Numbered from the stretch's first letter, positions 1 to 61,231 are shown. The stretch is DNA of 64,000 nt from a virus (IMGVR_UViG_3300017917_003366), one strand, 5' to 3'. Made by a program: numbers and translations. Notes: a model not told the origin generated them from the sequence alone.

Positions 1-414
1 CTTATCTTCGGGTTTATTTTCAGCAATTAAGTTGCCGGTAATAAAAATTAAATTATTTGAATCTAATCCATATTTGTTACCAATCAAATTCATATTAAGT
101 GAAATATGTTCCCCATAAAAATATTCGGTCATGGCATTTATTACCACCTTACATTTTCCTCGTTTCGCATGTTCCACCAATTTATTTGATAATATAATCG
201 ACGAGGCAAAATTTGGGTCTGGTTTTCCATCTATAAAATAAATAAAATTTACGTCTTCATTAATTAGTTCATCAACCGTTCCTTTTCTAAAATTAATTTG
301 GTTTTTATTTATTCCTGAAATTAAGAAACCATATGATAAGCTCATTTCTTTACCATACACATTTGATATCGGCCACCCGTCATCACTTATTTTATCAAAA
401 CCAAAACAACACAT
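1..414 (-). CDS. Hypothetical protein, 3'-truncated by window edge (MCCFGFDKISDDGWPISNVY...)
   Basis: Own translation: ATG at 414-412 overlaps the TAA of the radical SAM gene (TAATG); 138 codons open to position 1. Not in the ORF track. Confidence 0.75.
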   Translation of the reverse strand, partial: MCCFGFDKISDDGWPISNVYGKEMSLSYGFLISGINKNQINFRKGTVDELINEDVNFIYFIDGKPDPNFASSIILSNKLVEHAKRGKCKVVINAMTEYFYGEHISLNMNLIGNKYGLDSNNLIFITGNLIAENKPEDK

Positions 415-1796
415 TAAATTTCTATGGTTTTACAAAAATTATAGAATTCTTCTAATTCGGGAAATGTTTTAATAAAGTCAGTGCCTCTTCTTTTGTCATG
501 CTCGGAAAAGAATTTATAAAAATCGTGTCGATTTCTCATTTGTTGATTTGTATCCTGTGGTGAAATCATCCAATCGTAAATTCTTTTAATTTTATCCACT
601 TCAATATCAACAAATCCCGGAAAAGTATCGGTATGGTCTCTTAACGAATCGGCCAATAAATAATGATTATAAATGTTATCAGATAAATCGTATGGTAAAA
701 CCTGAACAGATTGGTGTAGGGGGTATCTTAAATAAGATGAATCTAAAAATACTGCGGGGTTCCAATATCTATCATTAGAATTAAACTGTTTTTTTAACGA
801 ATGTACACCTCTAATTAACTTATCATAATTAAAAACAGATAGGGCGTTATATGTTGACATGAATACGATAACCACTCTATTAGTTTTTGATAATATTTTA
901 GTTACGTTGTCCCAAAAACGATTGAACTCCATACCGTTACGGATATATTCCGCTTGGTTTCCCCAAGTATCGCAAGAGGTATACAAAACAAGTTCTTTTA
1001 CTAAATTATTATCCTCAATAATTTTAATCTTATCAATCAATCTATCAATTAGGTCATCAGGAGAACCTAAATTTGAATTAATACCCAACTTTAAATCTCT
1101 ATTTGGGTTTGGTTCATTAATTATGTAGTCAAGGATTTTCCATGTATCATTCATCAAAAGTGGTTCACCACCTGTTATTCTAAATGTATGTAAATCCCTA
1201 TACAGTTCTGGCCACCATTTCCAAAACGCCTCCACATATGGATTATGTTCCGTATGTGGTATCGGCATTTGCCCAATTGAATTCAAATACTCGAGATTAT
1301 TAAAATTCTCAAACGTTGGGTATCCTCCAAATTTTTTTGATTCCTGTACCCATTGAGAAGAAAATGATGGTCCACAATAAGAACACTTGAAATTACAAAT
1401 ATTGGAAAATGCAACCTCAACATATCTTGGATTAAAGTCGGCTCTCCAATCTAAATTTTTAATTTCCTCCATATGTGGATGTGACCATGGTTCGTGTGAT
1501 TTATAAACTCTATCTGAAAATTTATCAGAATTATCCTCCACATTCCAACAATACTCACATTCAGATGGTCGTTTACCGTCTAACATCTCTTTTCTACGTT
1601 CCTTTTTATATTTTGTATTATGTAGTGCTGACGGGTTTCTTATTAATTCTGAAACCGGAATTTTATGTGTTGATGGGTGGTGACAAGAATGTGTCTGTCC
1701 CATTTGTAAGTGTATGGTTACTTGTGTCCATTTTGCCAAGCAAAACCCACAACCCGTTGAATTTAATTCGTCTTTTACGTTTTGATGTGATATCAT
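414..1796 (-). CDS. Radical SAM protein with N-terminal Cys/His (twitch/SPASM-like) region
   Basis: CxxxCxxC motif (NICNFKCSYC), GGEP motif (ITGGEPLL), extra CGFCLAKW, HSCHH and CEYCW motifs. Confidence 0.9.
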   Translation of the reverse strand: MISHQNVKDELNSTGCGFCLAKWTQVTIHLQMGQTHSCHHPSTHKIPVSELIRNPSALHNTKYKKERRKEMLDGKRPSECEYCWNVEDNSDKFSDRVYKSHEPWSHPHMEEIKNLDWRADFNPRYVEVAFSNICNFKCSYCGPSFSSQWVQESKKFGGYPTFENFNNLEYLNSIGQMPIPHTEHNPYVEAFWKWWPELYRDLHTFRITGGEPLLMNDTWKILDYIINEPNPNRDLKLGINSNLGSPDDLIDRLIDKIKIIEDNNLVKELVLYTSCDTWGNQAEYIRNGMEFNRFWDNVTKILSKTNRVVIVFMSTYNALSVFNYDKLIRGVHSLKKQFNSNDRYWNPAVFLDSSYLRYPLHQSVQVLPYDLSDNIYNHYLLADSLRDHTDTFPGFVDIEVDKIKRIYDWMISPQDTNQQMRNRHDFYKFFSEHDKRRGTDFIKTFPELEEFYNFCKTIEI

Positions 1797-3178
1797 GTTG
1801 TTGTGTTTATCATTAATACATTATTTAACCCAAATGGATTTTCTTGGGTACCTTCTATTTTAAGTTTTTCCATTATTTGTTTAAAACCATCTGACTTATA
1901 ATCAATTTTTCTTTGTTGCATCTCTGTAACAAATCTTTTTTCATTTTTTGCGGTAGTTGCACCTTTAGCCCAAGTACCATTCACAAACCCTTCGTCGGTA
2001 TGAGATAAACAGTAAAACGAACCTTCTCTTCTGTATGGTAAAATGTTACCAATCACATTGATGTCTTCAGTTCCGTATTCTATGTTTTCATGGTCGATTT
2101 CAAAGTATTCATTACTATAATCGTAATCCATCACCAAATCATTCTCTTCGTTATAGATTTTTATTTCCGCAACTTTACCTTTAAAATAGGTATTTTGATT
2201 TGGACAAAATCCAACAGTGAATGGTCTGACAGAATCAAAACTTTTCATATCTCCAATATAAATTGATTCATTCTCTTTGATACCGTTGATATTCGTTTCT
2301 AACTCATCATTCACATAGAAATATAATTTACCTGTTGGTTTATCGTATTTGTATGTCACCCTTGTCCACAACCCTTCTTGTCTTTTTGCCCAATTATATT
2401 TCACATCACCGGTTTTATCTGTACCCAAGAATGTAACCGCTCTTGAATTGTTGAATGATAAACCCCATGTGTTTCCACCTTCTTTTCTGAGTATCGGATA
2501 TTCTATGAATTTTCTTGCGGGGTCACCAACTAACCATATGGGTACCTTTTCATTTTGTTGTTCGGGATAGAATAATACACTAACCGTGTGAGTATTATTC
2601 AATGCAGTACTTATTTCTCGATTACAACCCAACCTTAATGATGAGTTCTCTCCATTGAATTCGATGTATCCTCGGTCTTTATATTGTTCACTTATTTTAT
2701 ATTCAACATAGTTTTCAAAGTAACATCTCCAAAACAAATCGTCATCTTCTTGACCCCAATCCCAATATTCATTTGAGTAACCGTTGGTTCTTTCAACATG
2801 TTCTTTAGTGAATAAAACAACTCCACCGAAATACTGGTCATAACCCAAACCATACTGGTATTTTGACAACTTAGTGGCAATGTGTATTGGATTCTCCTCA
2901 GGATATGAATAATCGGGTAATGTATCCATATGTTTTGTGTAAGCCAACATATCTACGTCATGCCAAGCGATATAATCACAACCATCTTCAAATGCGTATT
3001 TCGCAGCAATATTCTTCATCATACCTCTATTAAAAAGATTGTCATCAACTTGATGTCCCACATAAAATTTATGGTCAATTCCTCTTTCATTTAGGTATGA
3101 AGAAAGATGTGGAACCAATCTATCGAGATGCTCCTTTCTATTTCTATATGGTATACAAATTCCTAATTTATGTTTCAT
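1793..3178 (-). CDS. GT7 (beta-1,4-galactosyltransferase-like) glycosyltransferase with inserted LamG/ConA-like domain
   Basis: IPYRNR, FNRG..KN, HDVD (DxD), YFGGV, NGYSNEYWDWGQEDDDL; LamG-like segment about aa 165-365; GT7 tail (LSH..., KSDG) resumes after it. Confidence 0.88.
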   Translation of the reverse strand: MKHKLGICIPYRNRKEHLDRLVPHLSSYLNERGIDHKFYVGHQVDDNLFNRGMMKNIAAKYAFEDGCDYIAWHDVDMLAYTKHMDTLPDYSYPEENPIHIATKLSKYQYGLGYDQYFGGVVLFTKEHVERTNGYSNEYWDWGQEDDDLFWRCYFENYVEYKISEQYKDRGYIEFNGENSSLRLGCNREISTALNNTHTVSVLFYPEQQNEKVPIWLVGDPARKFIEYPILRKEGGNTWGLSFNNSRAVTFLGTDKTGDVKYNWAKRQEGLWTRVTYKYDKPTGKLYFYVNDELETNINGIKENESIYIGDMKSFDSVRPFTVGFCPNQNTYFKGKVAEIKIYNEENDLVMDYDYSNEYFEIDHENIEYGTEDINVIGNILPYRREGSFYCLSHTDEGFVNGTWAKGATTAKNEKRFVTEMQQRKIDYKSDGFKQIMEKLKIEGTQENPFGLNNVLMINTTT

Positions 3179-4584
3179 ATTCCTACAACTACATGTATTT
3201 GTTGTTTAACTTTTGAAAGAGAATGTTCAACAAAATCACAATTAGATAAACCATCTTCTTTTGTGTTTCTGTATCCTTTCTGTACCTCATTGTAAAACTT
3301 TAATTGATTATATCTTGTCATATCACTCTTCCATCCGGTCTTAACGAATCCATTCTCTTCATGGGTTAATAATTCAAATGTTGATTTTCTTCTAAATGGA
3401 ACATCGATTGTTTTTGATTCAGAATACGATTCACCAACAATTTCACAGTTATAAATTTCACCATCATTATCTCCACACAAGTCAATTAATTTATAACCCC
3501 TAATGAATTTAGAATCGTAGTAAAGTATCAACGCGTGGTCAGATGAGTATCTTCCAAAACTTTGTGTTAAACCAAAGTATTTGTTATTCGATATCTCCCT
3601 GATTTCCGAATATGGTAATTCTTTATTGAATACTGCAAATGAACTAATCAAACCTCTGTAATAATTCTGGTCTCTTTTTCTTGTTGGGTCACCGACACCT
3701 AAATAAAAGAATTCTTCCTTCTCATATTTGTGAAGTGTTCTATAACTTTCCTGTGAAACCAAATCACCATCTTGATAGAATTTAATTAGGTTATCGTTTG
3801 GATTAATGGTAACCGCTACGTTGGTTCTGTAGTTTGTTTTGATGTTTGAATATTGGTAGATGATATTTCTACCCCCATCAAATATTTCTAATGTGTATCG
3901 GGCGTAAGAATTATATGTTACAGTGAAATCATAACCGGCAATTGAGAATACGGAATATTTGTCATCCATTTTTTCGTGGTCACAAATAAACTCATCAGGA
4001 AAGAATGAAATAAAGATGGTAAACTCCTCTCTTTGTTTGAAGAAGTTCTTACCTCGAACATATGCATCAACTCCATTGAATTTAAGTGATGCAACATTAC
4101 CTCCCTTCATTTCAATTTCTTTAACATCCAATGGAATACCATTTATCTTACATCTATGTAAAAGGTCGGTATCTTCATATCCCCATCCCCAATAATCATT
4201 TGAGTATCCATTAATGTGTTCAAACATGATTACAGGAAATATTGTAACTCCACCAAAGTATTCATCAAATACAATTCTTTTTGTTTCACCAATGAAATCG
4301 GTTGCCATTTGAACCGGTACATCTGAATATGAATAATCAACATCAACCGGTATCATATCCACATCATGAAATGCAACATAATCACATTTATTTTTCTTAG
4401 CATATAGAAACCCTACATTCAACAGTTTACCTCTGTTAAATGCTTTACCATCATCTTGTTCAACCACAATTAATTCAAAATCAATTCCTTTTTCATTTAG
4501 ATAGGGAATGATTTTTTTCTTGAATGTTTGTAGGTGTTCAAATCGGTCACGATAGGGAACTATAACACCAAGTTTCTTATCCAT
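3175..4584 (-). CDS. GT7 glycosyltransferase paralogue with inserted LamG/ConA-like domain
   Basis: VPYRDR, FNRGKLLNVG, FHDVD, YFGGV, NGYSNDYWGWGYEDTDL; then LamG (FNGVDAYV, VAVTI, FYQDG, YYRGLISSFAVFNKEL); then GT7 tail (LTH..., EDGLSN). Confidence 0.9.
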   Translation of the reverse strand: MDKKLGVIVPYRDRFEHLQTFKKKIIPYLNEKGIDFELIVVEQDDGKAFNRGKLLNVGFLYAKKNKCDYVAFHDVDMIPVDVDYSYSDVPVQMATDFIGETKRIVFDEYFGGVTIFPVIMFEHINGYSNDYWGWGYEDTDLLHRCKINGIPLDVKEIEMKGGNVASLKFNGVDAYVRGKNFFKQREEFTIFISFFPDEFICDHEKMDDKYSVFSIAGYDFTVTYNSYARYTLEIFDGGRNIIYQYSNIKTNYRTNVAVTINPNDNLIKFYQDGDLVSQESYRTLHKYEKEEFFYLGVGDPTRKRDQNYYRGLISSFAVFNKELPYSEIREISNNKYFGLTQSFGRYSSDHALILYYDSKFIRGYKLIDLCGDNDGEIYNCEIVGESYSESKTIDVPFRRKSTFELLTHEENGFVKTGWKSDMTRYNQLKFYNEVQKGYRNTKEDGLSNCDFVEHSLSKVKQQIHVVVGI

Positions 4585-4795
4585 TTATGGTTGGGTCCTT
4601 CGGTTTAATTGAATTATGCCATTCAGATAGATACCATTGGATTCTATCTCCCCACTCTTTCTTATCTACTTCTTCGAACCACACGGTTAATGCATCCAAA
4701 GAGTTGGCAATCTTCTCAAGTGCCTTAACTTTTCTTTGTTCAAGAAGTAAGAATTCGTTTTGTTCTTCCGAATTGGTTGTTTTTCTTCCACTCAT
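4577..4795 (-). CDS. Hypothetical protein (72 aa)
   Basis: ORF overlaps both neighbours in operon fashion; plausible helical composition. Confidence 0.6.
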   Translation of the reverse strand: MSGRKTTNSEEQNEFLLLEQRKVKALEKIANSLDALTVWFEEVDKKEWGDRIQWYLSEWHNSIKPKDPTING

Positions 4796-5649
4796 ATTGT
4801 TATGATTTTTTTTATTAATTTATTCCATTGTTTATATTTTTTATATTCAGGTTTGGTTAAACCTTTTTCAAACATAAACTCCGGGTCATCCAAATTGATA
4901 TGTCCTCTCATTTTGGATACTTCTTTGTACATTTTTCTATACTCTTCAGAAAATGCATACTCCTGATTAATCGACGCAACATTTCTCATACGTTGAGTTG
5001 ATGTTGAATCCCATTTAAAGTGATGTACTTGGACAGTATGTGATGGTACTGGTGCAATTAATGGATGATTCCACCCTTGCCATCTCCAAGTAGTATGGTT
5101 AAGTATTTTTGCGTAGTGTTGACCGTTGGTAATTTCAACATATCCCTTAACAACACAAATTTTGTTTGGACATGCGTCACTCATCGGGTATCTGAAGAAT
5201 CCTGCGTTCGGAAATTGTTTCCAAAGTGAATCTTTTTGATTTATTTCGGGGAATGTACCATCGGGACCGATTCTATCAATGAAACCACCTCTTACGATGT
5301 CCCAATTATTGGTTTCACAATCGATTATTAATTGTCTTAAATCATCTTCAGGGTAAAGATGTAACTCATCAATGTCGGCAATCACCCACCAATCATTTGG
5401 GTGTTCTCTTTTAACGTAATTGTATAGTTGTGTAACCTTCTCCCAATCAAAAACCCTATCATATACGGTTTTGACAATCTTTACATTGGGATACTCGTCA
5501 ATAATCTGATTAACTTCGTTAACCAGCTCTCGGTATAAATCAGATTCGTATACCACGAGGTTAATTTCGTCCACATATCTCTGATAGTGTTCAATATAAT
5601 GTTTAAGGAGATTAGTTCCATGACCTATTACACTTAATGCTCGTATCAT
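4792..5649 (-). CDS. Glycosyltransferase family 2-like (GT-A fold) protein
   Basis: LLKHYIEHY near N-terminus, WWVIADIDE (DxD) motif, NKIC...GQH and HHFKW segments typical of GT2/GT92-like proteins. Confidence 0.72.
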   Translation of the reverse strand: MIRALSVIGHGTNLLKHYIEHYQRYVDEINLVVYESDLYRELVNEVNQIIDEYPNVKIVKTVYDRVFDWEKVTQLYNYVKREHPNDWWVIADIDELHLYPEDDLRQLIIDCETNNWDIVRGGFIDRIGPDGTFPEINQKDSLWKQFPNAGFFRYPMSDACPNKICVVKGYVEITNGQHYAKILNHTTWRWQGWNHPLIAPVPSHTVQVHHFKWDSTSTQRMRNVASINQEYAFSEEYRKMYKEVSKMRGHINLDDPEFMFEKGLTKPEYKKYKQWNKLIKKIITI

Positions 5650-6374
5650 TTCTTTCTATTAATAATCGTAATTCCAGTTGATGATGGCTTTGTAGGAATT
5701 ATACGAAAATTGAATAGATTTATCAAGTTCCAATCAGGATTTTCTTGGATTTCTTTTATGAGTTTGGGTGGACCGTCGAACTTATGGTAATCTTTCTTGG
5801 CATCTTCCGAAACAATTAGATTATTTTCATAATTTTCATCGGTATCGTGAATTACGATGATACCATTCTCGGATAATAATTTGGAATAGAGTTCGAAGTC
5901 CTTTTTCACTCCTTCATAAGTATGGTCACCATCAATAAAGAGAAAATCAATCTTTATATCTTGTAAAGTAAAAAAGTTATAGTACGCGTTTTCTGAAGTA
6001 TTTTTAATAAATCGTGGGTAAAACGTTTTTCTATAGAAAGAATCTTCATTATCTAAATCAGTTTGTCCACCAATTCCATTACACGCATCAACCACATAGG
6101 TTGCACCGATGTCACCCCAATTATAATCGGGATTACCTTCAAAAATACCTTGTTTGTGAAGGTCAATACGTGCTTGGGTAATGATACGAGGAATGAACCC
6201 ACCACCAGAACCGATACATACACAGTTCTTTGCCCTTAATTGTTGGATAAGAGCATAAACAACAATCCCGTCACCTATGTGGAAGTCGGTTGCACCGTGT
6301 GTCCAACGATAGGGAACGGGATTATCTCCGTTGTTTGTTATAAACTGATTAATAAAGTCACTATTGGTTATCAC
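5646..6374 (-). CDS. Class I SAM-dependent methyltransferase (Methyltransf_24-like)
   Basis: CIGSGGG glycine loop, IDFLFIDGDHTYEGVKKDF, GIIVIHD; GTG start. Confidence 0.85.
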   Translation of the reverse strand: MITNSDFINQFITNNGDNPVPYRWTHGATDFHIGDGIVVYALIQQLRAKNCVCIGSGGGFIPRIITQARIDLHKQGIFEGNPDYNWGDIGATYVVDACNGIGGQTDLDNEDSFYRKTFYPRFIKNTSENAYYNFFTLQDIKIDFLFIDGDHTYEGVKKDFELYSKLLSENGIIVIHDTDENYENNLIVSEDAKKDYHKFDGPPKLIKEIQENPDWNLINLFNFRIIPTKPSSTGITIINRKK

Positions 6375-6396
6375 AATAGTGATAATTTACGAAAAA

Positions 6397-6759
6397 TTAT
6401 TCAGGTTGTGAAGGGGTCGGGAACATTTCAGGGTCCATAGGGACTGTCCACTCTTCAGTTGCCAATAGTGATAAAATTTCTTCGTGATTGTATTCGGGAA
6501 ATACACCGTTATAGATTGATGGTCTTCCGTAAATACCTGCGGCAATTGTTGATGTCATTTCCTCCATTGTTTCGGGATTAATGAACGTATTGATTATATC
6601 ATTTTCAACGATATTAATTTCGTACTTAATAAATGTTTTAGTTCCGTCAACGGAATAACGAAGTGTCTCAGGTGAGTTCTCGTGAACCTGATTAAAATCT
6701 ACGTTTTCTACTTCTGTAGATGGAATTACCAACCATCTTCTGTTAGGGAAATTGCTCAT
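6397..6759 (-). CDS. Hypothetical protein, probably virion-associated
   Basis: 120-aa ORF ending the adhesin cluster; preceded by the TATTTATA motif. Confidence 0.65.
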   Translation of the reverse strand: MSNFPNRRWLVIPSTEVENVDFNQVHENSPETLRYSVDGTKTFIKYEINIVENDIINTFINPETMEEMTSTIAAGIYGRPSIYNGVFPEYNHEEILSLLATEEWTVPMDPEMFPTPSQPE

Positions 6760-6766
6760 ATTGTTT

Positions 6767-8848
6767 TTATTTTATAAATATTCCATAATGATAATAAGCG
6801 GTCATAGCCGGAGAACCTCCATAGGTTAATGATGGATTATAACCCGCACCTTGGTATAGTGCGGTGTTGTAGTTACTGTTATCGGGAAAACGATTATCGG
6901 TAAATTGTCTTCTGTCCGCGGTATAATAACCTGTACCATCTACATATGGTGAAACATGTGCATTCCATTCATTTTGTGTGTTACTTAATGAATTTCCATC
7001 AATTGCGTAGTGAGTACCCAAACCTCTCGTAACGTCCCAGTTATCAGGTTCTAATGTTTGTTCACTACCCAATATTCTACATCCATTATTAACCAATAAA
7101 TGGTTAACTCGTAAGTGACCTAATGTTCTTGCGATTGAACAATAATCCAATCCTCTATTATATGTCGTTTTACCCAAACCACCTTGAGCATAATACGTAC
7201 TCGATATTTGTCTTCCTCCACTACCCTGACCAGGTGTATTCATTATTGTTTGAAACGTTTGTCCTGTAAAACTTGAAAGTAGTTGCCATGCGGCCCAACT
7301 CTCATTACCAAACTCGGTACCATTATTATGAACCTTTATCATCCATTTTGTACATGGATAATATCTAAAAATATCTCGATTTCTGTATTGTCCCGTTGTT
7401 GTATATGGTAATGAAGGGTTTCCGATTTCTGAACCTGCGTTTATCCAATTATCATAATCATTCCACGTTAAATTGGTATCGCCAAAATAATCACTCTTTA
7501 TATTCATAACCAACATCCAACCCTCACCATTTTTAAATTCACAATAGGTTTGTTTTGTTGATGTTCCATTATTAATCCAATAAACACCGTTTGTTTTAAT
7601 ACCCAAATCTGCCAAGTATTGTGCTGAGGGTGCCGCCAATGCTGACGTACTACCATCTTTAATTGCCGGTAATGAAAATCTACCTCTATAATGTTCGTAA
7701 TTATTTAAAATTTCTTGTTCGGTTAATGCTCTATTGTAAACTTTAGTAACATCTACTTGACCATTTAATTTATATGTACCATATCCACCATGGTTACTTT
7801 GGCCAATCCATGTCCCAAATAATGGGTATGCACCCATTTTTGTACCTGTATATACCCCTGCAGGTTGTCCATTGATATATAATTTTATTCTACCATCTGT
7901 CGCACTTGTAGTTTCATATATCGCAGCGACATGATTATAGTTTGTTTTTGATTGACACGCAACAGTTGCGTTTCCATTAACGGTAAATTGATATCCGGGT
8001 GTATCGGGGGGACCACTCCTTGTTGCTAAACTGACAATATCGGATGAATAGTTATACCACAAATTAAAACGATAATTTTCAAATAATGGACCGTCATTAC
8101 CCGAAGCACCACTGGCAATTTTAAAAACTTGCTCAACAGTTACCGCAGAAACACTTGCAGGAAAATAATCACTAACATTACCTAAATCAATTCTATCATC
8201 TGTCCCATCTAAAATAGGTTTACCATTCACATCAAAAGATGCTGCGGATAAATCAATGGTGGTTAATCCCATAACATCCAATAATCCTTGAGTTGCACTT
8301 CTTGTTCCGTTAACAAATGGTGTAGCAACCGAACCCGCCTCGACTTGTGGCATCGTTACTTCCCATGAAGAATAACTACCACCATAGGTTCCTCCATAAG
8401 AAATTAAATAAAAATTCACACTTGTTGTGGAAAATGTTCTTGTTGCGGACACTCTAACCCATTCCCCTATTGATTTACTATGCCCCTGAGCGGTGTCTCC
8501 TATACCCCCACCACTTGTATAAATAACTCCCCCATTATTGTCTGAAGCTCCCCCCAAATACCTAATATATGCAGATAATGTATATGTTCCGGTACTTGGT
8601 AATGATATACCCTTTACGATACCGTTCCACGAACCTCTGTTATACATTTTATAACCGGTGGTTCCAAATTCAGTAATAAATGTCCCATCATTACCATTAT
8701 CATAAGTTGACCAACCAGACATAGTTGATGCATCTGATACTAAATTAGTTGTTGGTTTACCTTTATATGACGCATCGGTATCACCAACGTCATATCCGAA
8801 GGTTAAACCAGATGTTGATATTTTTCCGTATCCTGTTCTTGTTGCCAT
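6767..8848 (-). CDS. LamG-domain adhesin/tail-fibre protein with inserted jelly-roll domain and C-terminal fibrinogen/intelectin-like domain
   Basis: GKPTTN...TRSATQGLLD cassette; LDGTDDRI, YNHVAAIY, YING, KVYNRALT LamG motifs; C-terminal TNGVYWI..TYCEF..GEGWMLV. Confidence 0.8.
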   Translation of the reverse strand: MATRTGYGKISTSGLTFGYDVGDTDASYKGKPTTNLVSDASTMSGWSTYDNGNDGTFITEFGTTGYKMYNRGSWNGIVKGISLPSTGTYTLSAYIRYLGGASDNNGGVIYTSGGGIGDTAQGHSKSIGEWVRVSATRTFSTTSVNFYLISYGGTYGGSYSSWEVTMPQVEAGSVATPFVNGTRSATQGLLDVMGLTTIDLSAASFDVNGKPILDGTDDRIDLGNVSDYFPASVSAVTVEQVFKIASGASGNDGPLFENYRFNLWYNYSSDIVSLATRSGPPDTPGYQFTVNGNATVACQSKTNYNHVAAIYETTSATDGRIKLYINGQPAGVYTGTKMGAYPLFGTWIGQSNHGGYGTYKLNGQVDVTKVYNRALTEQEILNNYEHYRGRFSLPAIKDGSTSALAAPSAQYLADLGIKTNGVYWINNGTSTKQTYCEFKNGEGWMLVMNIKSDYFGDTNLTWNDYDNWINAGSEIGNPSLPYTTTGQYRNRDIFRYYPCTKWMIKVHNNGTEFGNESWAAWQLLSSFTGQTFQTIMNTPGQGSGGRQISSTYYAQGGLGKTTYNRGLDYCSIARTLGHLRVNHLLVNNGCRILGSEQTLEPDNWDVTRGLGTHYAIDGNSLSNTQNEWNAHVSPYVDGTGYYTADRRQFTDNRFPDNSNYNTALYQGAGYNPSLTYGGSPAMTAYYHYGIFIK
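6773..6780 (-). promoter_or_regulatory. TATTTATA putative late promoter
   Basis: 13 nt before ATG 6759; encoded in GIFIK* of the upstream gene. Confidence 0.55.
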
Positions 8849-8849
8849 A

Positions 8850-10586: not shown

Positions 10587-10590
10587 ATTC

Positions 10591-10598: not shown

Positions 10599-10599
10599 T

Positions 10600-11370: not shown

Positions 11371-11376
11371 AATTTT

Positions 11377-50625: not shown

Positions 50626-52461
50626 TTATAATTGACAACTTTCTTGACATGCATCGACACAATCAATCCAAGCATTGGTTCCATATAATGTAATAACACC
50701 CGTACCGGTAGAATTACCCGTAATCATATAAACAAACCCATTACATCCTCCCACGACATCAACATAAAATCTACCAAAAGATGGAGATATTGATGTTGGC
50801 ATTTCAACAATAATTAAATCATTAACCATTGTACATCCGGTTGCAGTTCCTTCTGCATCATATCCACACTCCCATTGTTCTGCCTCATACGCAACCGTTG
50901 ATATTGGTTCAGTCGGCATTGTGGCGGTTTGAGTGGGTGTTGATGTTGGTGTGTTTGTAGGGGTACTCGTTGGAGTTTCCGTTAGTGTTTGAGTTGGTGT
51001 GCTCGTTAATGTTTGGGTTGGTGTGCTCGTTAATGTTTGGGTTGGTGTAGATGTCGAAGTCGGAGTTGAAGTTGGGGTTTGGGTCGGTGTTGCGACATTC
51101 TCACCACAAATTTCATAAACCGCATAATCCAATGATACGGTGTTACTAATGTATATTGTATTTGTTGGCTCATATAACTCAACCGACATAACACTAGTTG
51201 TTATTGGTGTTGACGTGATTAAATTGGTTGCGGTATCTAAAATAGAAATTCCACTAACATAATTTGCGGTATAAATTCTATTATTGGCACTATTGTATTT
51301 TGCACTAAATGTTAAATTAAATGATGAAGATGTATGTGACGATACAACCGTTTCCGTGGTACAATCAATTATACTATATCCATCATCAGTAGAGAAGCTT
51401 TCAAAAAATGCAAAGAGTTGATTTGTTGATGGTTTGTATGTCATGGTAGATGCATAATCCGCAGGTAGGGTTATACTGTTAGTTACCGTATTAGTTGTAC
51501 AGTCAAACACTTTAACTGTACCGGTATTTCCCGCAATGTAGATTTTATTATTGCTTGGAACACATTCCATAAATTCGGAATTAACCAATCCGTTATTTGC
51601 ATTTCTAAATGGTAATCCCGTTAATGTTGTTGTTATCGTATCTGTTGACCCATCAATTATTGTTAATTCTGAAGTTGACACACCCGTACTTGAGTGTGCA
51701 TAAATTTTATTATTTGAACTATTATAAACTAAACCTCCGGCATATGTATGTCCCGCAGTGCCGGTAATTGTTGTTAATAATGAGAAGTTACCTAAACTAA
51801 CATCAAAAACATAGATTACTTGGTTACCAGTTACATAAAGTTTATTATTTGTGGTATTCAATGTAGAGTATCTAGCATGATTCAATCCCGAATAAACTTG
51901 AGTTATGGTTGGTGTGTTTGGTGTAATTGCATAAATTACCGAGGTATTGGTCGTACCACTATATGCAACAACATATACTAAGTCATTCAATTCATCCGTT
52001 TGTATTGATTTGGCAATTCTCGGAGCAACACTCAATGTTCTAACGATATCATCCGAACACTCAGTTAATGTCGGTGTTGATGTTTGAGTAGGTGTTTGGG
52101 TAGGGGTGTTAGTTGGTGTACTCGTTAATGTTTGAGTAGGTGTTTGAGTTGGTGAAACTTCTCCTTCTTCACAAACAACTTCCACACTAAAGCAAATTGT
52201 GTCATAACATGGAAATGCTTTACTGTCGTGAGTGTATATGTTTTTAATAATGTAACGACCTGTTGTTTGGTCGGTCATTTTAATCCAATATTGAGTGTCG
52301 AATGTTAAACCTGTTAATTCAATGGTCGTAGCAGTTAAACCTGTACCATAAAGTGTGAATGTTGTATTATCATACTCTGGCCAAGGATTAGAACCACTTT
52401 TATATCTAATTGAATAAGGTCCATCCGAAACTATATCATATATTCTTACATTTAATCCCAT
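50626..52461 (-). CDS. YncE/YVTN-like beta-propeller protein flanked by Thr/Pro tracts
   Basis: About seven blades (NNKLYV, NNKIYA, NNKIYI, TNQLFA, NNRIYT, TNTIYI) between two TxT tracts. Confidence 0.75.
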   Translation of the reverse strand: MGLNVRIYDIVSDGPYSIRYKSGSNPWPEYDNTTFTLYGTGLTATTIELTGLTFDTQYWIKMTDQTTGRYIIKNIYTHDSKAFPCYDTICFSVEVVCEEGEVSPTQTPTQTLTSTPTNTPTQTPTQTSTPTLTECSDDIVRTLSVAPRIAKSIQTDELNDLVYVVAYSGTTNTSVIYAITPNTPTITQVYSGLNHARYSTLNTTNNKLYVTGNQVIYVFDVSLGNFSLLTTITGTAGHTYAGGLVYNSSNNKIYAHSSTGVSTSELTIIDGSTDTITTTLTGLPFRNANNGLVNSEFMECVPSNNKIYIAGNTGTVKVFDCTTNTVTNSITLPADYASTMTYKPSTNQLFAFFESFSTDDGYSIIDCTTETVVSSHTSSSFNLTFSAKYNSANNRIYTANYVSGISILDTATNLITSTPITTSVMSVELYEPTNTIYISNTVSLDYAVYEICGENVATPTQTPTSTPTSTSTPTQTLTSTPTQTLTSTPTQTLTETPTSTPTNTPTSTPTQTATMPTEPISTVAYEAEQWECGYDAEGTATGCTMVNDLIIVEMPTSISPSFGRFYVDVVGGCNGFVYMITGNSTGTGVITLYGTNAWIDCVDACQESCQL

Positions 52462-52468
52462 GTTATTT

Positions 52469-52476
52469 TATAAATA
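52469..52476 (-). promoter_or_regulatory. TATTTATA putative late promoter
   Basis: Intergenic, before ATG 52461. Confidence 0.58.
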
Positions 52477-52483
52477 TTTTTAA

Positions 52484-55400
52484 TTACGTAACATAAATTA
52501 TATCATCCCTTACCGGTGCATTAATATTTACACCATTAGCATTAAGTGTGATTGGTGGTGTGCCGGTACTATCTTTCCAAGCGTTGTTATAAGGTTCATT
52601 ATAATTAAACATTACAGCACCAGGACTAAATGCCGGTGCTAAATCGGTATTAGGTAATCCATTGTTATATATAATAGTATCGATATCTTGGTTACTTATC
52701 AAACCATTATAGAACAACGTTTGGTCCTGCCAATGTGCGTTGGCCCAATAGTGTCCACCAAGTTTAATTGTTGAACCATTATTAAACGCCGTTAAATATG
52801 ATGTGGTTGTACCTGTTGGTATGTGCATATCTAACGTTTCTAATGGTTGTCCGTTCCAAAAGAATGTACCCGCCAATGAAGCACTTCCCGATGTGGTAGC
52901 AAAACCACCAGTTCCATCAATTGTAAAAGTTATATTTACGAATTGAGCAATACTACTTGCGTTCCATGCGGTGTACCCTCCAGGACCTAATCCCGTAATT
53001 GTTGCATTATTACCATCATTAACTACAGCGCTAAATACATGAGCTTTATAGTTATCTGATTGACACCATATAACTTCAACCCATAGTTGATTACCGTATG
53101 ATTCACTATCATATGAGAAGCTTATTCTATCTTCAGAATCTGCCCCACATCCACTACCTATTGACGGAGCTCTCATTTCCATAAATGATGTTGGTAAATA
53201 TGTTGGTCCCGCCTGCCAATCTGGTTTTATCCATGTTGAGAATGTGAATTGGGTTGCTCCCGAACCTATACGTATATCACTTTCAAAACCACTTGACATA
53301 TATGAATACTCACCCGTATTTGTTGCTTGGTCATAGTAAACTGAAGAAGATGTCGACGCAGCTGCTGCTGATGCGGTTGCCGTTAATGTACTTGTCTGAG
53401 TAGGTGTATTTGTTGGTGTACTTGTTGCCGTTAAAGTAGGTGTTTGAGTTGGTGTTGATGTTGGAGTTGATGTTGGAGTTGATGTTGCGGTTGGGCAAGG
53501 TCCACAATCAGTACATGTTGTGTATATCTGATATGTCGGCGATGCTCCTACGGTTACTGCACCGACCGCTGTTATCTCATAACAATACCCACCATAACTT
53601 AATGAATTACCAACACTTGGTAATGTATATTGTGTACCACATCCAATACCGACTTCTAGTTTATTAACAAATGGACTATCGGGACAACATGCTGTCAAGT
53701 TTACGTTTACATACGCACAACCACCTCTTTCTTCTAAACAAAGTTCACAGGCAGTAAAATCAAATAAGGTATTACCTGAATAATATCCATCTGAACCATT
53801 ACCACCAAGTCCTCCCATGTGATAACAACATCCAAACGTGCTAGTTGTTAATTGGAAATCATTAGTGTCGTATACCCCCGCATCAACACTTATTTGTAGT
53901 GTATCGTTTTCATCACAACACGACACAAGTAAAATATTAACTGGTGGTGTTGCCGACGGAGTATTAGTTGGGGTATTAGTTGGTGTTTCTGTTAATGTTT
54001 GAGTTGGTGTATTCGTACTTGTACTTGTCAAAGTAGGGGTACTCGTAGCGGTTAATGTTGGTGTATTAGTTGGGGTTTGAGTTGGTGTTTCTGTTTGAGT
54101 ATTCGTACTTGTTAAAGTAGGTGTACTCGTTGCTGTTAATGTCGGAGTATTGGTAGGTGTTTGTGTATTAGTACTAGTAGCAGTCAACGTAGGTGTGCTA
54201 GTTGCCGTCAACGTTGGAGTATTAGTAGGTGTTTGTGTTGGTGTCTCTGTTAAAGTTTGAGTAGGCGTACTCGTCAATGTTTGCGTCGGAGTATTCGTAC
54301 TTGTCGAAGTACTTGTCAACGTCGGGGTTGAGGTCGCCGTTAATGTAGGTGTACTTGTTGCCGTCTCCGTTGGTGTGTTTGTACTTGTACTTGTTAAAGT
54401 TGGCGTACTTGTAGCTGTTAATGTTGGAGTGTTAGTTGGTGTTTGGGTCGCAGTTTCAGTTTGCGTATTTGTACTTGTCAACGTTGGTGTTGATGTTGCA
54501 GTCAATGTCGGAGTATTGGTCGGAGTTTGTGTCTGAGTATTTGTTGCCGTTAATGTTGGCGTACTCGTAGCAGTTTCCGTTGGCGTATTTGTGCTCGTAC
54601 TTGTCAAAGTAGGAGTGCTCGTTGCAGTTAACGTAGGGGTGTTTGTTGGTGTCTGTGTTTGAGTTTCAGTTTGTGTATTAGTTGCGGTCAACGTAGGAGT
54701 ACTCGTCGCCGTTAACGTTGGAGTACTTGTTGCTGTTAATGTTGGTGTTGCTGTAGGTGTTGGACAAATTTGTGATGTTCCACATATTGCTTCATCATTA
54801 TTATCTTCATAAACAATGTGAACATCTGATAAACTATTAAGTGGTGCTATGTAAACACTACCTCCACCACCGGCATAGGTAACTAAATAAGAGTAACTAT
54901 AGATTTGTAAACTAGTTCCTGAGTACAGATGTTCGTTTTCTTGAACAGGGTGGTCATTATCATAAATTATAATTGTTGCAGGATTTCCATTACATAATGT
55001 ATCTAAATTATCCGCAATTACATAAACTTGACCAAGTTGGACTTCAGTTGCTGTCGGTGTTTGAGTAGGTGTAAGTGTAGGTGTACTCGTTGCCGTTTGC
55101 GTTGGGGTTTGAGTTGGTGTCTCTGTTTGAGTATTTGTACTTGTCAAAGTAGGAGTACTCGTAGCAGTTAATGTCGGCGTTTCTGTAGCGGTACTTGAAG
55201 ATGTAAGGGTTGGGGTCGACGTTGCAGTTAACGTCGGAGTATTAGTAGGTGTCTCCGTCGGTGTGTTTGTTGGGGTTTCTGTTGGTGTGTTAGTTTGTGT
55301 TTCAGTTTGGGTATTCGTACTAGTTAACGTCGGAGTACTTGTTGCCGTTAATGTTGGTGTTTCCGTTAAAGTAGGAGTACTTGTAGCGGTTTCGGTAGGT

Positions 55401-58400
55401 GTATTAGTTGGGGTTTCGGTTTGGGTATTAGTACTCGTTAAAGTAGGAGTACTTGTTGCCGTTAATGTTGGTGTTTCCGTTAAAGTAGGAGTACTAGTAC
55501 TTGTTTGAGTAGGAGTATTTGTGGGTGTCTCCGTCAACGTTGGAGTATTAGTAGGTGTATTTGTAGCGGTACTACTATTTGTTAATGTGGGAGTACTGGT
55601 TGCAGTTAATGTCTGTGTAGGTGTCTGAGTTGGTGTTTGAGAATATAACGTAGTTGAGGTAATGATACAATTAACAACCTCTATAATTAAAACATTCGGG
55701 TCATTTGGATTATTCACTAGCTCATCAAAAACCCAATATGTTCCGTCAAGAATTCCACATTGACAATCTGTTTGAGATGTTGTATAAATTCTTTCTCCAA
55801 TTGTTATCGATGCAATATTATAATCGTTGTATGATATAGATTGTGCACCATATAGTTTAAATTGGTCAAACGCCATCCCCGCATATGAGGTTGTTCCTGT
55901 ATAAAAGTTGTATGAAGTTCCGTTTACAAGAACCTGACTAATCAAATTATATGTATCTAATCCCGCAGGTTTTTGACATATCTCACTTGATGTTGGAGTG
56001 CTTGTCATTGTAGGTGTACTCGTTGCACTTAATGTTGGTGTATTTGTACTTGTTTGTGTTGGAGTATTGGTTGGTGTTTCTGTAGGTGTGTTAGTAGCCG
56101 TCAACGTAGGAGTACTGGTCTCCGTTAATGTTGGAGTATTAGTTGGCGTTGCAGTTGATGTTGGTGTTGGTGACGGACATTCGTATGTTCCACAATCAGG
56201 TAAGCTTGCGAAATCATGTATCACCGCAATGACACCATTTACAATTTCAACCACATATAATGGATATGTATTTTCACCGTTTGGTGCGTAAATGTAATTA
56301 CCTGTTTGTGTTGAAGGGAAATAAGTAGGTCCGGCACCATATAATTGTGTTCCCGCAACAAATCCCGCAGATGAGTAATAGTATACACTACCACCACCCA
56401 TACTCCAGTTCGGATGTGTTATAATATATATCCAATCACATTTTGCCTCCTGTACACTTTTCGTTGTCCAATTCGTTAATATATCACCACAAACTTCTCC
56501 TTCGTACCATAAGTTGGTATCCGCATCAGGATTACCAGCGGCACTTGGTGTGTTTGTCGCAGTTGGGGTACTCGTACTTGTCGCAGTTGGTGTTTCCGTT
56601 AAAGTAGGAGTACTCGTTGCCGTTAACGTAGGGGTATTTGTTGGTGTTTGAGTAGGGGTTTCAGTTGACGTAGGGGTACTTTCAACCGTTGCTGTATTGG
56701 TTGGAGTACTGGTCTCTGTTAATGTTGGAGTATTGGTAGGTGTTGCCGTTTCTGTTAATGTCGGAGTACTCGTAGCAGTTAACGTCGGAGTGTTAGTAGG
56801 TGTGTTAGTTGACGTTGCCGTTAATGTCTGAGTAGGTGTATTTGTTGGTGTACTAGTTAATGTTTGTGTCGGAGTATTCGTACTTGTTGAAGTAGGTGTA
56901 CTCGTTGCAGTAACCGTTGGTGTTGGTGTCGAGGTTTGTGTGCTTGTCGGAGTTGGTGTCGGACTTGCACCCGGTACACATTCAAATGGAGATTCTTCCA
57001 AATCCTCATCTGTTGGTACTGTTGGACAATGTACAGGGTCAATATAATATTGTCCTAAATTGAAATCAATATTAGGATGTTTATCATACTGATGTTTCAT
57101 TAATATTTGATGATTTGTGTTACCATCAAATACAACCATAAATTCATCCGTTAACGGTGAACCATCTTTCTCAACATTAAGATTAAAATATAATCCCGTG
57201 TCACAATAATTTAAATCAACACTTAAAACTTCAATTGGAGAACCATATTGGTTGATTAGGAAATCTCCTTTGTCATATAATTCACTTGGGTGGTCACAAC
57301 ACGGCCCAATAAAATCCTCAGGTCTTACTTGTAATTCCTCAGGGAATCTATCATCAAAATGATATGTTCCGTTTGTTACCGAACCGAAATCTTCAATAAA
57401 TTTATTCGTATAAACTCGTAATTGTGTTGTTGGTAAAACTTCAAATACTTCGATGTCACCGGTTGTTGTTTCACCAGTGATAATACTTTTCTTAATTGAA
57501 CCTAAACATTCTTTATCAGTCACCAAAAGTTTTGAATATTCATATGTAAATGAATATCCATCTTGAGATGCATTTTGGAATTGTTGGTTTGTTAATCCTG
57601 AACACGGTAGATAATCTGCACTTAAAATGTATTCACCAACTTGAAGTTGATAAACTGTTTTTTCGGTAATCGTTCCACCTAAAATATATGATTCAATATC
57701 ATCACTTGTTGTTGTACTATCAATCACCAATCCTGAGGAAACAACCAATACAATTGAACTGTCTTTTAAACCGTAATTAAAATTAGATTTATATTCAACC
57801 TTTGGTTGCATTGTGTATCCTGTGTAATTGTCACAGAATGTCACCCCTGATGTTGTTGAAATGGTATTTCCTGTTGAACCTTGGTAACCGTTAATCACAA
57901 ATATTTCTGTGTGACTTTTTCCACTTGGTAGTGGACAAGGGTCATGTTCAATTTTTGCTTGTAATCCTTCAATTTTAAATTTAACCTCATTGTTAGCAGC
58001 ATCAACGATATTGAAATCAATCACATCGTATTCAGTAACACCCGTTAATTTAAATTTACAATCGTATCCTGCAACTTTTTCAATGTATACGTCAGCATTT
58101 TGGCTGTGTCCACTTGTACAATTTGCATAAATGTAGAACGGCCATTCGTGTCCTTTTTGAACTCCGAATTGTGCCCCAATGACATCAATGTAAATGTCAG
58201 ATACCATGATACAGTTTTCCGGTTCTTCACAATAATATTCTCCGTCACCACTAACCTCAACACTTAATCTATCATTAATTTTTGTTGTTCTATAATCAGC
58301 TTCAAAACGATAATCAAAGTAATCTTTAACAGAACAATCACCAATACCGTACTTTATTGATGAGAATTTAATCATCTCCTCACCATCTTCATTAGTGAAT

Positions 58401-61231
58401 ATTTCATAACTCACCATCGGTACTGTTTCAGTTGTGTATGAATGTCCCGTTGCTCCGGTAAACGGTGCATATGGTTCATATCCGGCACTATATCTCGTAA
58501 TCGTAATTGTATTAATTAAATTACTTAATGCCGTTAACCATAATTGTTTTATTTTAACAATATCTGGTTCTAAATAATCTTTGTAATCACAAATAAGAGC
58601 CAAATTAATTGGGTCGTTATTTGTTAAATCAGTACATCCCGTCATTGGGAATGGATTAAACAGTTGTGCACTATTTGTGGTATTTGTGGTACCACTAACA
58701 ACAACTGTCATCCCTGTGGTTAATCCCGAATAATCAGGACCACCGTATACAATTCCATCAATCTCAATTATTGGGTAATATGTTACACCCGTTAAATTGA
58801 TTAATCCTCTAAAGTTTGTTTCTTCACCAAGTAATGTTTCAAGGTCTTCTTCGATTGCGGTTTCAAAATCAGGATATAAATCCTCAATAAACTCCATTGG
58901 TTGACAATCAAATACATAAGGGTATTTTGGTCTTCCAAATAAATTGTTTTCAATTAAATTACCACCCGTCCATAATGTTGTTGCTGGAACTAATTGTTCT
59001 ACTAACTGTACCCAATAAGGACTGATTCTATTTACAAACTCCGCAGAATCGATAAATGTAAATGGTGTAAAACCGGTTTGTGAAATATAATCTCTGTAGA
59101 TATCTTCAAGAACGATGTAGTTCTTTTTATATCTAATTGTGTGAGAATTCTTAATTACTTTATGTATGAAATTATCAACAAATTGAGCAAATGTAATTCC
59201 TGTTTGAGGTGCCAATAAATTTGTTGTACCAAAAGAAATTTCTAAATCTCTACTCTTTCTGAAAATATCATAGTTAATTGAGTTCGATGGTGAAATATGA
59301 ATATTGATATTTTTTCTATTCAATATCAATGATGAACCATCTTCAACATCGTGAGCTTTTAAATTGTCAATTTCCGCTTGTAAACCATAACCCGTATCTA
59401 AACCCGGTAGTGTTCTAAACACATCAAAATAATCTTCACCATATGTGTAAGATTTATTTTTTGTTTTGATTGTTTTGGTTCTACCTGTTAATACAGAATT
59501 TTCATCATCCAACACTGTCGGAGAACGGTGGTCCAATGTAATATCATACCACCCCGCACCTTTTTCAAAGAAAATATCGTTACTTTCACTAAACGCTCTT
59601 CTTGGTAAACCAGTATCGGGGTCAACAGGGAAACCATCTCTATCAAATGTGGTGGTTCCTGTGGCAACAGTTGTTGTATATGTATACCCCGTTGTATTGA
59701 AATTCGCTGTTATGTATGTTTTTTCACCGGCAATTACGTCATAGATGTCTTGTTCCAAATCAGAACTTGACGGCATCGATGTTACCTTATAAACATATTC
59801 GTTAATCTTAATCAACGGTTCAGGAGCCCCTAAAAATTTTAAGAAAAATTCTACCGATGCTCTCGTACCTTTTGATTTAAAAATATATGCAAGATTTACT
59901 AATAATCTTCTGTAGAATTCATATTCCGCTTCAACCTGATTAAATCCTGTAGATACTCCTTGATATGTTGATGACAAACGAGTGTACATCATATCCTCCA
60001 ATGACTTCTCATCAAATAGATTGGTTGTTGATAAACCAAGGTTTTCAGATAAATTCTTTAATAATATATCAGGTAAGTTATTTACACCATCGTAACTCAC
60101 ATTTCTCATGTAAGCAATGTTGTCAATATATTTTTTTACTGAGTCGAAACTTTGACCATATAATTGAAAGACACTTTCTGTTCTCTTGTCTTCCGTATCA
60201 AATTCAAATAATTGAGGGGAAGCCAAGAATCTAACCATAAGATTAGATTTGTAGTTATCAATTTGGTCCGAAATGTCACTTAGATTTTGAATGTAAGATT
60301 CGTAATCAAGTCCACTGATTTGAATATTCCAACCATCTACCAATATTGGCCACGAATAACTAATATTTTGAAGTGTTGTTCTTGAGCCGTCGGTACTTTC
60401 TTGTGGTACCTGAAAACTCGAGGTATAAATTGGTGTTGTTTCTCTGTTTAATAAAGATTCCTCAACATCATCTAAACCATTAAAAAATTCTTCAACTACA
60501 CCGTCATTAGGTCTAATAATGAAATCATTAGAATATGATGTGGAACCACTGAAGGGATTTCCAATTACAACAAAAACCAATTCATTTGCACTGTTTGGTT
60601 CATTGTATTGAATAACCGGATAACTTTCGTTATTTAAGTTTAAAACGTATTTGTTATAAGATGAATATAAATTTCTAAGTTCGTTTTCTGTTGTTGGTTT
60701 AATAACACTATTCGGTTCAACTAATGTAATATCAAATGGATTGAATATTTTACTTAATTGAACATAGAAAGTTGTACGATTTAAACTGTAATCGTGTGAT
60801 ATGTTATATGCCGAGAAAAGGTTATTACCAATTGGGGTATCCGCAACAATAGATAATGCTCCGGGGAACTTTTTAATAATACGAGTAATTGAAACTAAAA
60901 TTCTTTCTTTTAAAGAACCGAACATAGATTTGTCCGCGTTTCTCTTATTACTCTTAAAACGAATTGTACTTTTTCTTTGTGAACCACCTGATGTCGATGA
61001 CTGTGTGGTTGTTACCGCCGAGGTTTCTTTCTTAACACTATCAAGAGTTAGAAACTCAGAAAATGGATTATTTCTGAATGATTTAGCATCTTTTTCAGGA
61101 ATGGTCTTATCAATATCAAAACTTGTATTGGCAAGGGCAGGACTACCCGTAGTGATTTGTCTTCCAACTAAATTATCACTAAATGTTTCTGCTCCGCTAG
61201 CCGCTTGACTTGGTACCTTTCTTCTCGCCAT
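52484..61231 (-). CDS. Giant (2915 aa) baseplate-wedge-like protein with mucin-like stalk, Cys-rich beads and C-terminal LamG-like domain
   Basis: [42 protein letters not shown] (P2 gpI/T4 gp7-like); five TxT tracts; C-terminal FTFSTWIKP...FWNG...FYNGL. Confidence 0.78.
53350..56970 (-). repeat. Coding Thr-x-Thr repeat tracts in the giant protein (about 56541-56970, 55985-56175, 55045-55640, 53940-54765, 53350-53495)
   Basis: ACN codon at every second position; x drawn from P,N,Q,L,S,A,E; third codon positions diversified. Confidence 0.95.
55332..55495. repeat. Exact 50-bp direct repeat (55332-55381, 55446-55495)
   Basis: GGAGTACTTGTTGCCGTTAATGTTGGTGTTTCCGTTAAAGTAGGAGTACT read twice, 114 bp apart. 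Confidence 0.9.

Follow-up and report, generated by a model that had tools for sequence, protein, structure and literature searches.

The DNA analysed here is a 64,000-nucleotide stretch of a viral genome (IMGVR_UViG_3300017917_003366), referred to in its whole length as the window. It holds at its left end a cassette of predicted sugar-transferring and sugar-tailoring enzymes joined to an array of lectin-like fibre genes, and toward its right end four genes whose products contain very long tracts with threonine (Thr, T) at alternate positions. A preliminary description had united both gene groups into a single system, by which the phage would O-glycosylate its own baseplate and surface proteins into mucin-like stalks. 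The source is an uncultured, T4-like jumbo phage, in which T4-like replication and recombination genes are present. The window has a G+C content of 33–39%, with 51 of its 52 main open reading frames (ORFs) on the minus strand, and about 48 of its ORFs were scanned against Pfam. A nucleotide search of the window against 50,697 GenBank phage records gave no match; the useful relatives are IMG/VR contigs, namely G001 and G002 (245 and 310 kb), which are collinear with the window at protein identities of 55–95%, and G027 and G030 (233 kb each), which overlap and together span ~286 kb of an estimated 307-kb genome. G027 is collinear with positions 23.6–64 kb of the window (protein identity 55–88%).

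The cassette (414–6759, extending left beyond the window), which from its gene content would be a cytoplasmic glycan-building module set on the fibre array, stands at the end of that array and on the same, minus strand. Its gene run is headed by a conserved protein of 120 residues (6397–6759; 87% identical in G002), followed by a class I S-adenosylmethionine (SAM) methyltransferase (5646–6374; Methyltransf_24, Pfam E 4e-14, with weak CmcI/rhamnosyl O-methyltransferase likeness), a glycosyltransferase (GT) of GT-A-like, Glyco_tranf_2_4 type (4792–5649), two paralogous GT7 (beta4GalT-like) enzymes with a LamG insertion (paralogue A, 3175–4584; paralogue B, 1793–3178), and a radical SAM enzyme with an N-terminal twitch (auxiliary Fe-S) domain (414–1796; PF04055, NF033640). 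Membrane spans were found in none of the cassette proteins, and the Pfam scans of the ~48 window ORFs turned up no recognisable flippase, polymerase or exporter. The methyltransferase and the radical SAM enzyme named in the preliminary description are both borne out by their family matches (Methyltransf_24 and PF04055/NF033640, respectively); among the four glycosyltransferase-like genes that it counted, three are supported, and the fourth (15612–16307) is a language-model lead only. The radical SAM protein scores 352 bits over residues 18–452, against a cut-off of 170 for NF033640, an N-terminal-twitch family without known reaction, and its gene comes after the GT7 pair in four of four related loci (L001–L004). 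The order GT2_4-like, GT7-LamG, GT7-LamG, radical SAM thus recurs in the four loci, and beyond it lie SGNH-like, sugar dehydrogenase-like and carbamoyltransferase-like genes, as judged by their N-termini.

The GT7 pair is the most distinctive part of the cassette. Both paralogues exceed the Pfam cut-offs for the two halves of the family (Glyco_transf_7N, 58–76 bits; 7C, 57–66 bits) and for Laminin_G_3; paralogue A is further assigned by alignment and profile, and paralogue B (7N 7.5e-16, 7C 2e-18, Laminin_G_3 1e-7) retains the DVD, WG.ED and His motifs in the family alignment. The LamG domain occupies residues ~160–395, between the WGWGYED motif and the HEENG histidine segment, and is, on this alignment, an insertion and not a terminal fusion. 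In each paralogue and in every one of 23 aligned relatives it splits the catalytic fold, leaving no contiguous GT7 domain, and its insertion site lies beside the acceptor side of the GT7 fold. Because D74-x-D76, E137-D138 and H408 are invariant across 23 GT7-LamG sequences, both enzymes look active; H408 would correspond, by position only, to the metal-binding His of B4GalT1. Searched against solved structures, the family profile finds beta4GalT7 and beta4GalT1 (E 1.7e-39 to 1e-35), the best match being beta4GalT7 (3lw6, E 1.7e-39). The family is large (1,943 homologues; ~494 IMG/VR contigs), and yet GT7-LamG had no match in the 50,697 GenBank phage records. The LamG insert has only a distant likeness to the LamG domains of the fibre array (hidden Markov model E 6.5e-10 to 3e-4), which is little informative.

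The GT-A-like protein at 4792–5649 is recognised at the level of its family: the window copy reaches 22 bits, under the PF13704 cut-off of 27.5, while 36 of 41 family members match PF13704 and the G002 orthologue passes with 28.1 bits. D92/D94/E95, D125-R126, H178 and an HHFKW block are invariant or nearly so, and the protein may be the first or an early transferase of the pathway. The second GT-A-like candidate (15612–16307), located within the fibre array, has no match in Pfam, PHROGs, NCBIfam or PDB sequences; its language-model look-alikes fall among GT8, GT6 and TOD1-type clusters at 0.95, a lead only. For both proteins, sequence and profile searches of solved structures found no relative.

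The fibre array (6767–23544, minus strand) comprises ~13 lectin-like (LamG/ConA-type) fibre-like paralogues, with matches to phrog_8510, phrog_24074 and tail-fibre PHROGs as well as to Laminin_G_3 and Fibrinogen_C. One member of the LamG array is a fibrinogen-C-domain protein (14877–15575; Pfam E 3.4e-8), 93% identical in G002; it represents a ficolin-type lectin fold within a phage fibre module. In three phages (that of the window, G002 and the smaller G022) the sugar cassette comes directly after fibre genes. Past the thioredoxin gene (23891–24202, mid-window, found in the Pfam scans), the window and G002 share the LamG fibre array and the GT7 cassette, and no gene of the 414–23544 block has a homologue in G027. 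The corresponding locus of G027 (153071–165180) carries a 13-gene cassette on the opposite strand with GT2-type genes, together with epimerase-like and methyltransferase-like ORFs named from N-terminal sequence only. Judging from this gene content, the fibre-plus-cassette block is swapped as a unit between related phages.

At the other end of the window, the preliminary description had claimed more than 1000 residues of Thr-x-Thr/Pro tract in four proteins without signal peptides, which holds well: defining a tract as a stretch with at least 50% Thr in 12-residue windows, we counted 1,178 residues, distributed over the ORFs at 46516–48747 (160), 48795–50576 (184), 50626–52461 (107) and 52484–61231 (727), all on the minus strand. 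No hydrophobic N-terminus or membrane-span-like segment was found in the four proteins. Thr accounts for 575 of the 1,178 residues, at alternate positions, and the intervening x in T-x-T is P (31%), S (20%), L (12%), Q (12%), A (9%), N (9%) or E (5%), with Asp in only 1 of 528 x positions. The DNA repeats underlying the tracts are short and degenerate (period 24, 66–95% matches) and all four Thr codons are used, so the periodicity must be held by protein-level selection and not by recent slippage. Across lineages, x changes (P/S/L/Q in the window, P/A/G/S in G002, P/N/V in G027) and Thr stays constant; the kept Thr, the varying x and the use of four codons together show that Thr itself is under selection. 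Matches to the Bacteroidota sequon D-(S/T)-(A/I/L/V/M/T), a consensus that may not be that of the host, are nearly absent, with 0–8 per tract protein; of the two marks of substrates of Bacteroidota O-glycosylation, the export signal is lacking and the sequon is scarce.

The tracts connect small Cys-rich domains (14–44 Cys per protein) like a string between beads. In the protein at 46516–48747 (743 residues, 37 Cys) such domains are joined by the 160-residue tract; the protein at 48795–50576 (593 residues, 32 Cys) repeats the arrangement with its 184 tract residues; and in that at 50626–52461 two tracts, 107 residues in all, stand on either side of a T/S/N-rich, beta-type central region. The bead domains are mutually dissimilar, and neither they nor the C-terminal domain of the giant fourth protein matched a Pfam family at E up to 1. 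As a side observation, bead domains contain 4–5% Cys (46516–50576, 59800–53500) despite the lack of export signals, and the phage has a thioredoxin.

The giant protein itself (52484–61231, minus strand; 2,915 residues) is divided by homologue comparison into a conserved core of 1,420 residues and a variable extension, the latter consisting of 727 tract residues in 10 windowed stretches (about five main tracts), four small domains and an end domain of 295 residues. Its tracts are matched by phrog_15511. The core has 702 homologues, 43–89% identical, many of them only ~1,412 residues long and lacking any extension; at the C-terminus the add-on may be missing altogether or may exceed 1,000 residues, and in some orthologues it includes BspA-type repeats or discoidin domains, most extensions holding T tracts and Cys. 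Even a relative with an 89% identical core has 327 tract residues, compared with 727 here. Since core orthologues occur with and without such varied extensions, the tracts belong to a fast-changing add-on. In G027 the core is a separate protein of 1,414 residues, followed by an ORF of 5,472 residues (107307–123725), of which 4,858 (89%) are T-x tract (T 45%, P 20%, N 14.5%, V 8.6%) between small Cys-rich N- and C-terminal domains. Fully extended, at ~0.3 nm per residue, this tract would by simple arithmetic measure ~1.5 micrometres. For the core, no match was obtained among solved-structure sequences or by tblastn against the 50,697 GenBank phage records; a language-model search gave a 0.75–0.81 lead, with Baseplate_wedge on 12% of one cluster. 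A “baseplate wedge-like” identity is not shown by fold, as the AF2 model of residues 330–790 (pLDDT 52.7) found no match, and a LamG identity of the end domain, resting on one short motif at E 0.065, is not established.

By gene order and synteny, the tract proteins would be part of a distal baseplate module (44341–63834), in which the tracts may serve as long spacers between the small Cys-rich domains. At its left end stands a multi-beta-sandwich protein of 715 residues (44341–46488, minus strand), probably a tail or baseplate component: the structural matches ranked highest for its AF2 model (pLDDT 72.6) come from phage tails and baseplates, with middling Z of at most 9.7. It has no PDB sequence match, TM-scores of at most 0.12 in Foldseek against the PDB, no match in the 50,697 GenBank phage records, and a single true relative in BFVD, itself uncharacterised. 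At its right end come three conserved proteins (61231–63834, minus strand; 305, 370 and at least 182 residues), and the motif discussed below is frequent in two of these. Directly upstream of the position corresponding to the right end of the window, G002 encodes gp25-like (PF04965, 6.9e-12), Baseplate_J-like (4e-4, slightly below cut-off), 1,293-residue and 580-residue proteins, and its sheath and tube genes are located further along.

A recurrent (S/T)GxT motif, which had been claimed for the structural proteins of the window, is indeed 8- to 16-fold enriched in tail/baseplate proteins. The 715-residue protein contains 16 copies against 1.0 ± 1.0 in shuffled sequences (0 of 2000 shuffles reach 16), the ORFs at 62174–63286 and 63286–63834 contain 11 (1.3 expected) and 3 (0.2 expected), and the giant protein contains 22 (9.1 expected), 18 of them within the core. 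The motif is directional, its reversed form occurring in only 2–3 copies, and specific for Gly, as A, N or D in that place gives 0–3; the preceding residue is typically hydrophobic or aromatic. In the AF2 model of the 715-residue protein all 16 sites lie in coil, mostly directly before a strand. Its 115 homologues average 11.7 motifs against 1.6 reversed ones, with seven sites kept in 77–87% of them and about twenty of low occupancy; the sites therefore turn over while their number stays high. Among 210 larger ORFs of G002, eight carry the motif at p <1e-4, comprising the sheath, baseplate-module proteins, a 4,057-residue fibre-like protein and other large proteins near the sheath gene. [ST]GxT is accordingly a lineage-wide mark of tail proteins that extends beyond the genes of the window. 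It is equally enriched in G027 (13, 11 and 19 copies), which lacks the GT7-LamG cassette. No [ST]GxT was found in the sheath, tube or baseplate proteins of T4, where only the capsid vertex protein gp24 marginally exceeds expectation (3 vs. 0.2), and no excess was found in the LamG array or in any enzyme of the window. As for individual G002 counts, the tail sheath has 11 copies (1.6 expected) and the 4,057-residue protein 38 (16.9 expected), and excesses were also seen in proteins of 702, 1,947 and 580 residues.

We rank virion O-glycosylation as the best single reading of this locus, while holding it only tentatively, at rather less than an even chance: phage transferases would attach short O-linked glycans to virion proteins while these are still in the cytoplasm, mainly on the Thr tracts. 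What grounds it in the sequence is the enzyme families, the intact catalytic motifs, the tracts, their probable place in the baseplate module and the selection on Thr; every step linking enzyme to acceptor, the identity of the sugars and the presence of any glycan are inferred. The virion proteins would be modified before assembly, much as streptococcal Ser-x adhesins are glycosylated before export. A GT-A enzyme, for which 4792–5649, 15612–16307 or a protein encoded elsewhere in the genome are candidates, would prime Thr; the two GT7 enzymes might then extend the first sugar with a beta-linked hexose or N-acetylhexosamine, their inserted LamG perhaps holding the already modified chain, and the methyltransferase and the radical SAM enzyme could tailor the sugars.

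Several observations speak for such glycosylation. The cassette appears soluble, with no membrane span and with no exporter recognised in the window scans, and it adjoins fibre genes in all three phages mentioned (window, G002, G022); Thr is conserved while x is free; and the tract proteins combine the scarcity of the Bacteroidota sequon with the lack of signal peptides. The preliminary description had also called for a co-occurrence test between GT7-LamG genes and tracts, which was carried out with a DNA pattern of eight Thr codons at alternate positions, the same pattern read backward being the control. Every GT7-LamG contig that is at least 80% complete contains the pattern, with 539 matches in G002, 217 in G006, 27 in G009, 252 in G012 and 190 in G014 (controls, 0–1). 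Two precedents, discussed below, lend further support. Some less complete GT7-LamG contigs have no pattern, and G022 (70% complete) has no strict match but does encode an 84-residue tract.

The converse half of that test gave no specific link, and it opens the list of points that weigh against virion glycosylation. Nine contigs with the giant core, from different samples, have ~1,700–2,060 matches each and no GT7-LamG (such counts in separate samples rule out an assembly artefact as the source of the 5,472-residue tract protein). G027 and G030, which have neither GT7-LamG nor the 414–23544 block, hold 5,375 residues of T tract in total, and the T tracts therefore do not depend on GT7-LamG. A looser pairing with “some phage glycosyltransferase” is no help, since GT2-type genes occur in five of five genomes tested and are hence inseparable from T tracts in this lineage; Glycos_transf_1 matches in G002 and G027 are only weak or short. 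No initiating protein O-transferase of GtfA-, OGT- or ppGalNAc-T-like kind was recognised, the chemistry of GT7 is sugar-to-sugar, known members acting on sugars and not on protein, and the tract genes lie 40–57 kb from the cassette. Furthermore, glycan on the particles is inferred and not observed, and the Pro/Thr linkers of cellulases can work unglycosylated. The earlier claim of self-glycosylation into mucin-like stalks is thus upheld in part, as the soluble cassette and the selection on Thr fit it and the pairing of GT7 with the tracts fails.

Part of this evidence can be turned to a different account, which we consider unlikely on the whole without dismissing it: the T-x tracts would be unmodified, semi-rigid spacers holding binding domains off the baseplate, and the cassette would act on host envelope glycan, for example by masking the receptor of the neighbouring lectin-like fibres and so sparing the loss of progeny on infected cells or debris. 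It would account well for a cassette that is linked to, and exchanged together with, the lectin-like fibre array and not the tract genes, and for T tracts that persist without the cassette; Pro, at 31–44% of x, by itself favours extended chains. Yet the window scans recognised no membrane-bound transferase, flippase or lipid-carrier enzyme, and a plain spacer has no need of strict Thr, in place of Ser or another small residue, over thousands of positions. Rather improbable, in our view, is a narrower scheme in which the cassette glycosylates the adjacent fibre/lectin proteins or the hydrophobic-T-G-x-T loops, the T-x tracts being modified by other enzymes or left bare. The cassette adjoins fibre genes in three lineages, and the 8- to 16-fold enrichment of [ST]GxT, its directionality, its modelled position in loops before strands, its turnover across 115 homologues and its excess in sheath, baseplate and fibre proteins of G002, with none in T4 tail proteins, are what a loop sequon could produce; the LamG array, however, has no motif excess, a Gly-containing turn leading into a strand would explain the motif on ordinary structural grounds, and the motif is just as enriched in G027 without the cassette, which means that the enzyme for it, if it is a sequon, is not GT7-LamG.

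The glycosyltransferases might also be unrelated to virion proteins and hypermodify the phage DNA, as in the glucosyl-hydroxymethylcytosine of T4 and related systems, an option to which we give very little credence. Phage glycosyltransferases often act on DNA (PMC12619734; PMC13326640). The replication and recombination genes are T4-like, and a long ORF of G027 resembles thymidylate synthase by its N-terminal sequence only; still, no base-hydroxymethylase was found in the window, and the enzymes described here are of GT7/GT-A type with a lectin-type insertion, encoded among fibre genes. The DNA glucosyltransferases of T4 belong to the GT-B fold. Those DNA transferases tabulated in PMC13326640 likewise resemble GT-B.

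Among known systems, the nearest demonstrated one to virion O-glycosylation as proposed here is that of mycobacteriophages, and the nearest in architecture is that of the streptococcal Ser-x adhesins. Glycans on the capsid and tail tube of mycobacteriophages have been shown (Freeman et al. 2023, as cited in PMC12619734). As outlined in that source, Che8, Corndog and Myrna have soluble phage glycosyltransferases encoded beside structural genes, and the cytoplasmic modification of Ser/Thr-rich stretches of virion proteins that we propose has been shown there. In the window, too, glycosyltransferase genes are next to virion structural genes, the cassette coming directly after fibre-like genes. 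The difference lies in the acceptors, which in that account are short C-terminal tails of capsid and tail-tube subunits with demonstrated glycans, whereas here they would be hundreds to thousands of alternating T-x residues of baseplate-module proteins, served by GT7-LamG/GT2_4 enzymes. The serine-rich-repeat adhesins of streptococci and lactobacilli share the very long dipeptide-periodic repeats (S-x there, T-x here) and a cytoplasmic priming enzyme followed by several GT-A extenders encoded nearby; specifically, GtfA/GtfB prime the Ser-rich repeats and GtfC, dGT1 and others extend them (PMC5796085). They differ in having Ser instead of Thr and in being cell-wall adhesins instead of phage parts, and neither the GtfA/GtfB pair (GT4 + DUF1975) nor accessory Sec was found in the Pfam-scanned window ORFs.

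With regard to the enzymes, B4GalT7 and B4GalT1 (CAZy GT7; PDB 3lw6, 4irq, 1o0r) have in common with the cassette proteins both Pfam halves and the DxD, WGxEDD and C-terminal His motifs, and B4GalT7 extends a sugar O-linked to protein Ser. The window enzymes are distinguished by a ~235-residue LamG between the EDD motif and the His segment, by the absence of a membrane anchor and by their viral origin; by motif and profile they are GT7 members with an interrupted fold. The polypeptide GalNAc-transferases of GT27 likewise join a GT-A unit to a lectin module, and their acceptors are dense Thr/Pro tracts. They have, however, a GT2-type N-terminal half (alongside Glyco_transf_7C) and a C-terminal ricin-type lectin where the present enzymes have Glyco_transf_7N and an internal LamG, so that the likeness is one of analogy and not of membership. 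Extended Thr/Pro-rich interdomain spacers, glycosylated in their native hosts, are also known from the linkers of bacterial cellulases and from Bacteroidota O-glycosylation. Those proteins are exported and modified outside the cytoplasm, in contrast to the window proteins, which lack a signal peptide and nearly lack the sequon.

Literature searches turned up no published description of the tracts, of the [ST]GxT motif or of the GT7-LamG cassette. The present analysis adds the negative result on specificity, the exchangeable fibre-plus-transferase locus, the placement in the baseplate module, the TGxT statistics with their turnover and T4 control, and the 5,472-residue tract protein. A more ambitious proposal, speculative and in its entirety unlikely, is that this lineage of freshwater jumbo phages builds mucin-like baseplate threads, which in a relative could reach micrometre length, by cytoplasmic O-glycosylation of strictly alternating Thr-x tracts, the glycan type being set by the exchangeable cassette, and a second, lineage-specific loop sequon (hydrophobic-T-G-x-T) being used on sheath, baseplate and fibre proteins.

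If virion O-glycosylation is confirmed, it would be a variant following those of mycobacteriophages and of the streptococcal serine-rich-repeat system. Tailed phages of environmental bacteria would then produce mucin-like glycoproteins within the bacterial cytoplasm, at a scale for which the other known cases are animal mucins and the adhesins of streptococci, and would do so with animal-type GT7 enzymes bearing a built-in lectin. This would bear on the host finding of large phages, their resistance to proteases and their sticking to particles or mucus, and would provide a natural cytoplasmic system for dense O-glycosylation. Should the tracts prove bare, an explanation would still be needed for a Thr periodicity kept strictly over thousands of residues and for the TGxT motif found across the tail.

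The remaining genes of the window include a sigma-70-family factor with regions 2 and 4 (34303–35112) and a full-length ClpP protease (36425–37087, E 2.9e-57), besides an AAA ATPase, a Dam-type methylase, an amidase, an SbcC/SbcD-like pair and a primase-like protein in mid-window; the SbcC-like protein has distant phage relatives (~25% identity), uncultured huge phages among them. No tRNA was found in the 64-kb window. In positions 1–20000, sigma-70-like promoters and terminators did not exceed the count expected by chance, leaving co-transcription of the genes there without support. The sequence TATAAATA, equivalent to TATTTATA on the coding strand, occurs within 6773–52476 of the window at 14 sites on the plus strand and none on the minus strand, a total that does not exceed the chance level (9.65 expected). 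For at least 10 of these sites a minus-strand start codon follows within ~120 nucleotides; such sites precede the first gene of the sugar run (6773) as well as fibre and tract genes, and the copy ahead of 6397–6759 lies 14 nucleotides before that gene on the coding strand. Together, the strand bias and the placement suggest that TATTTATA is a promoter element of the phage.

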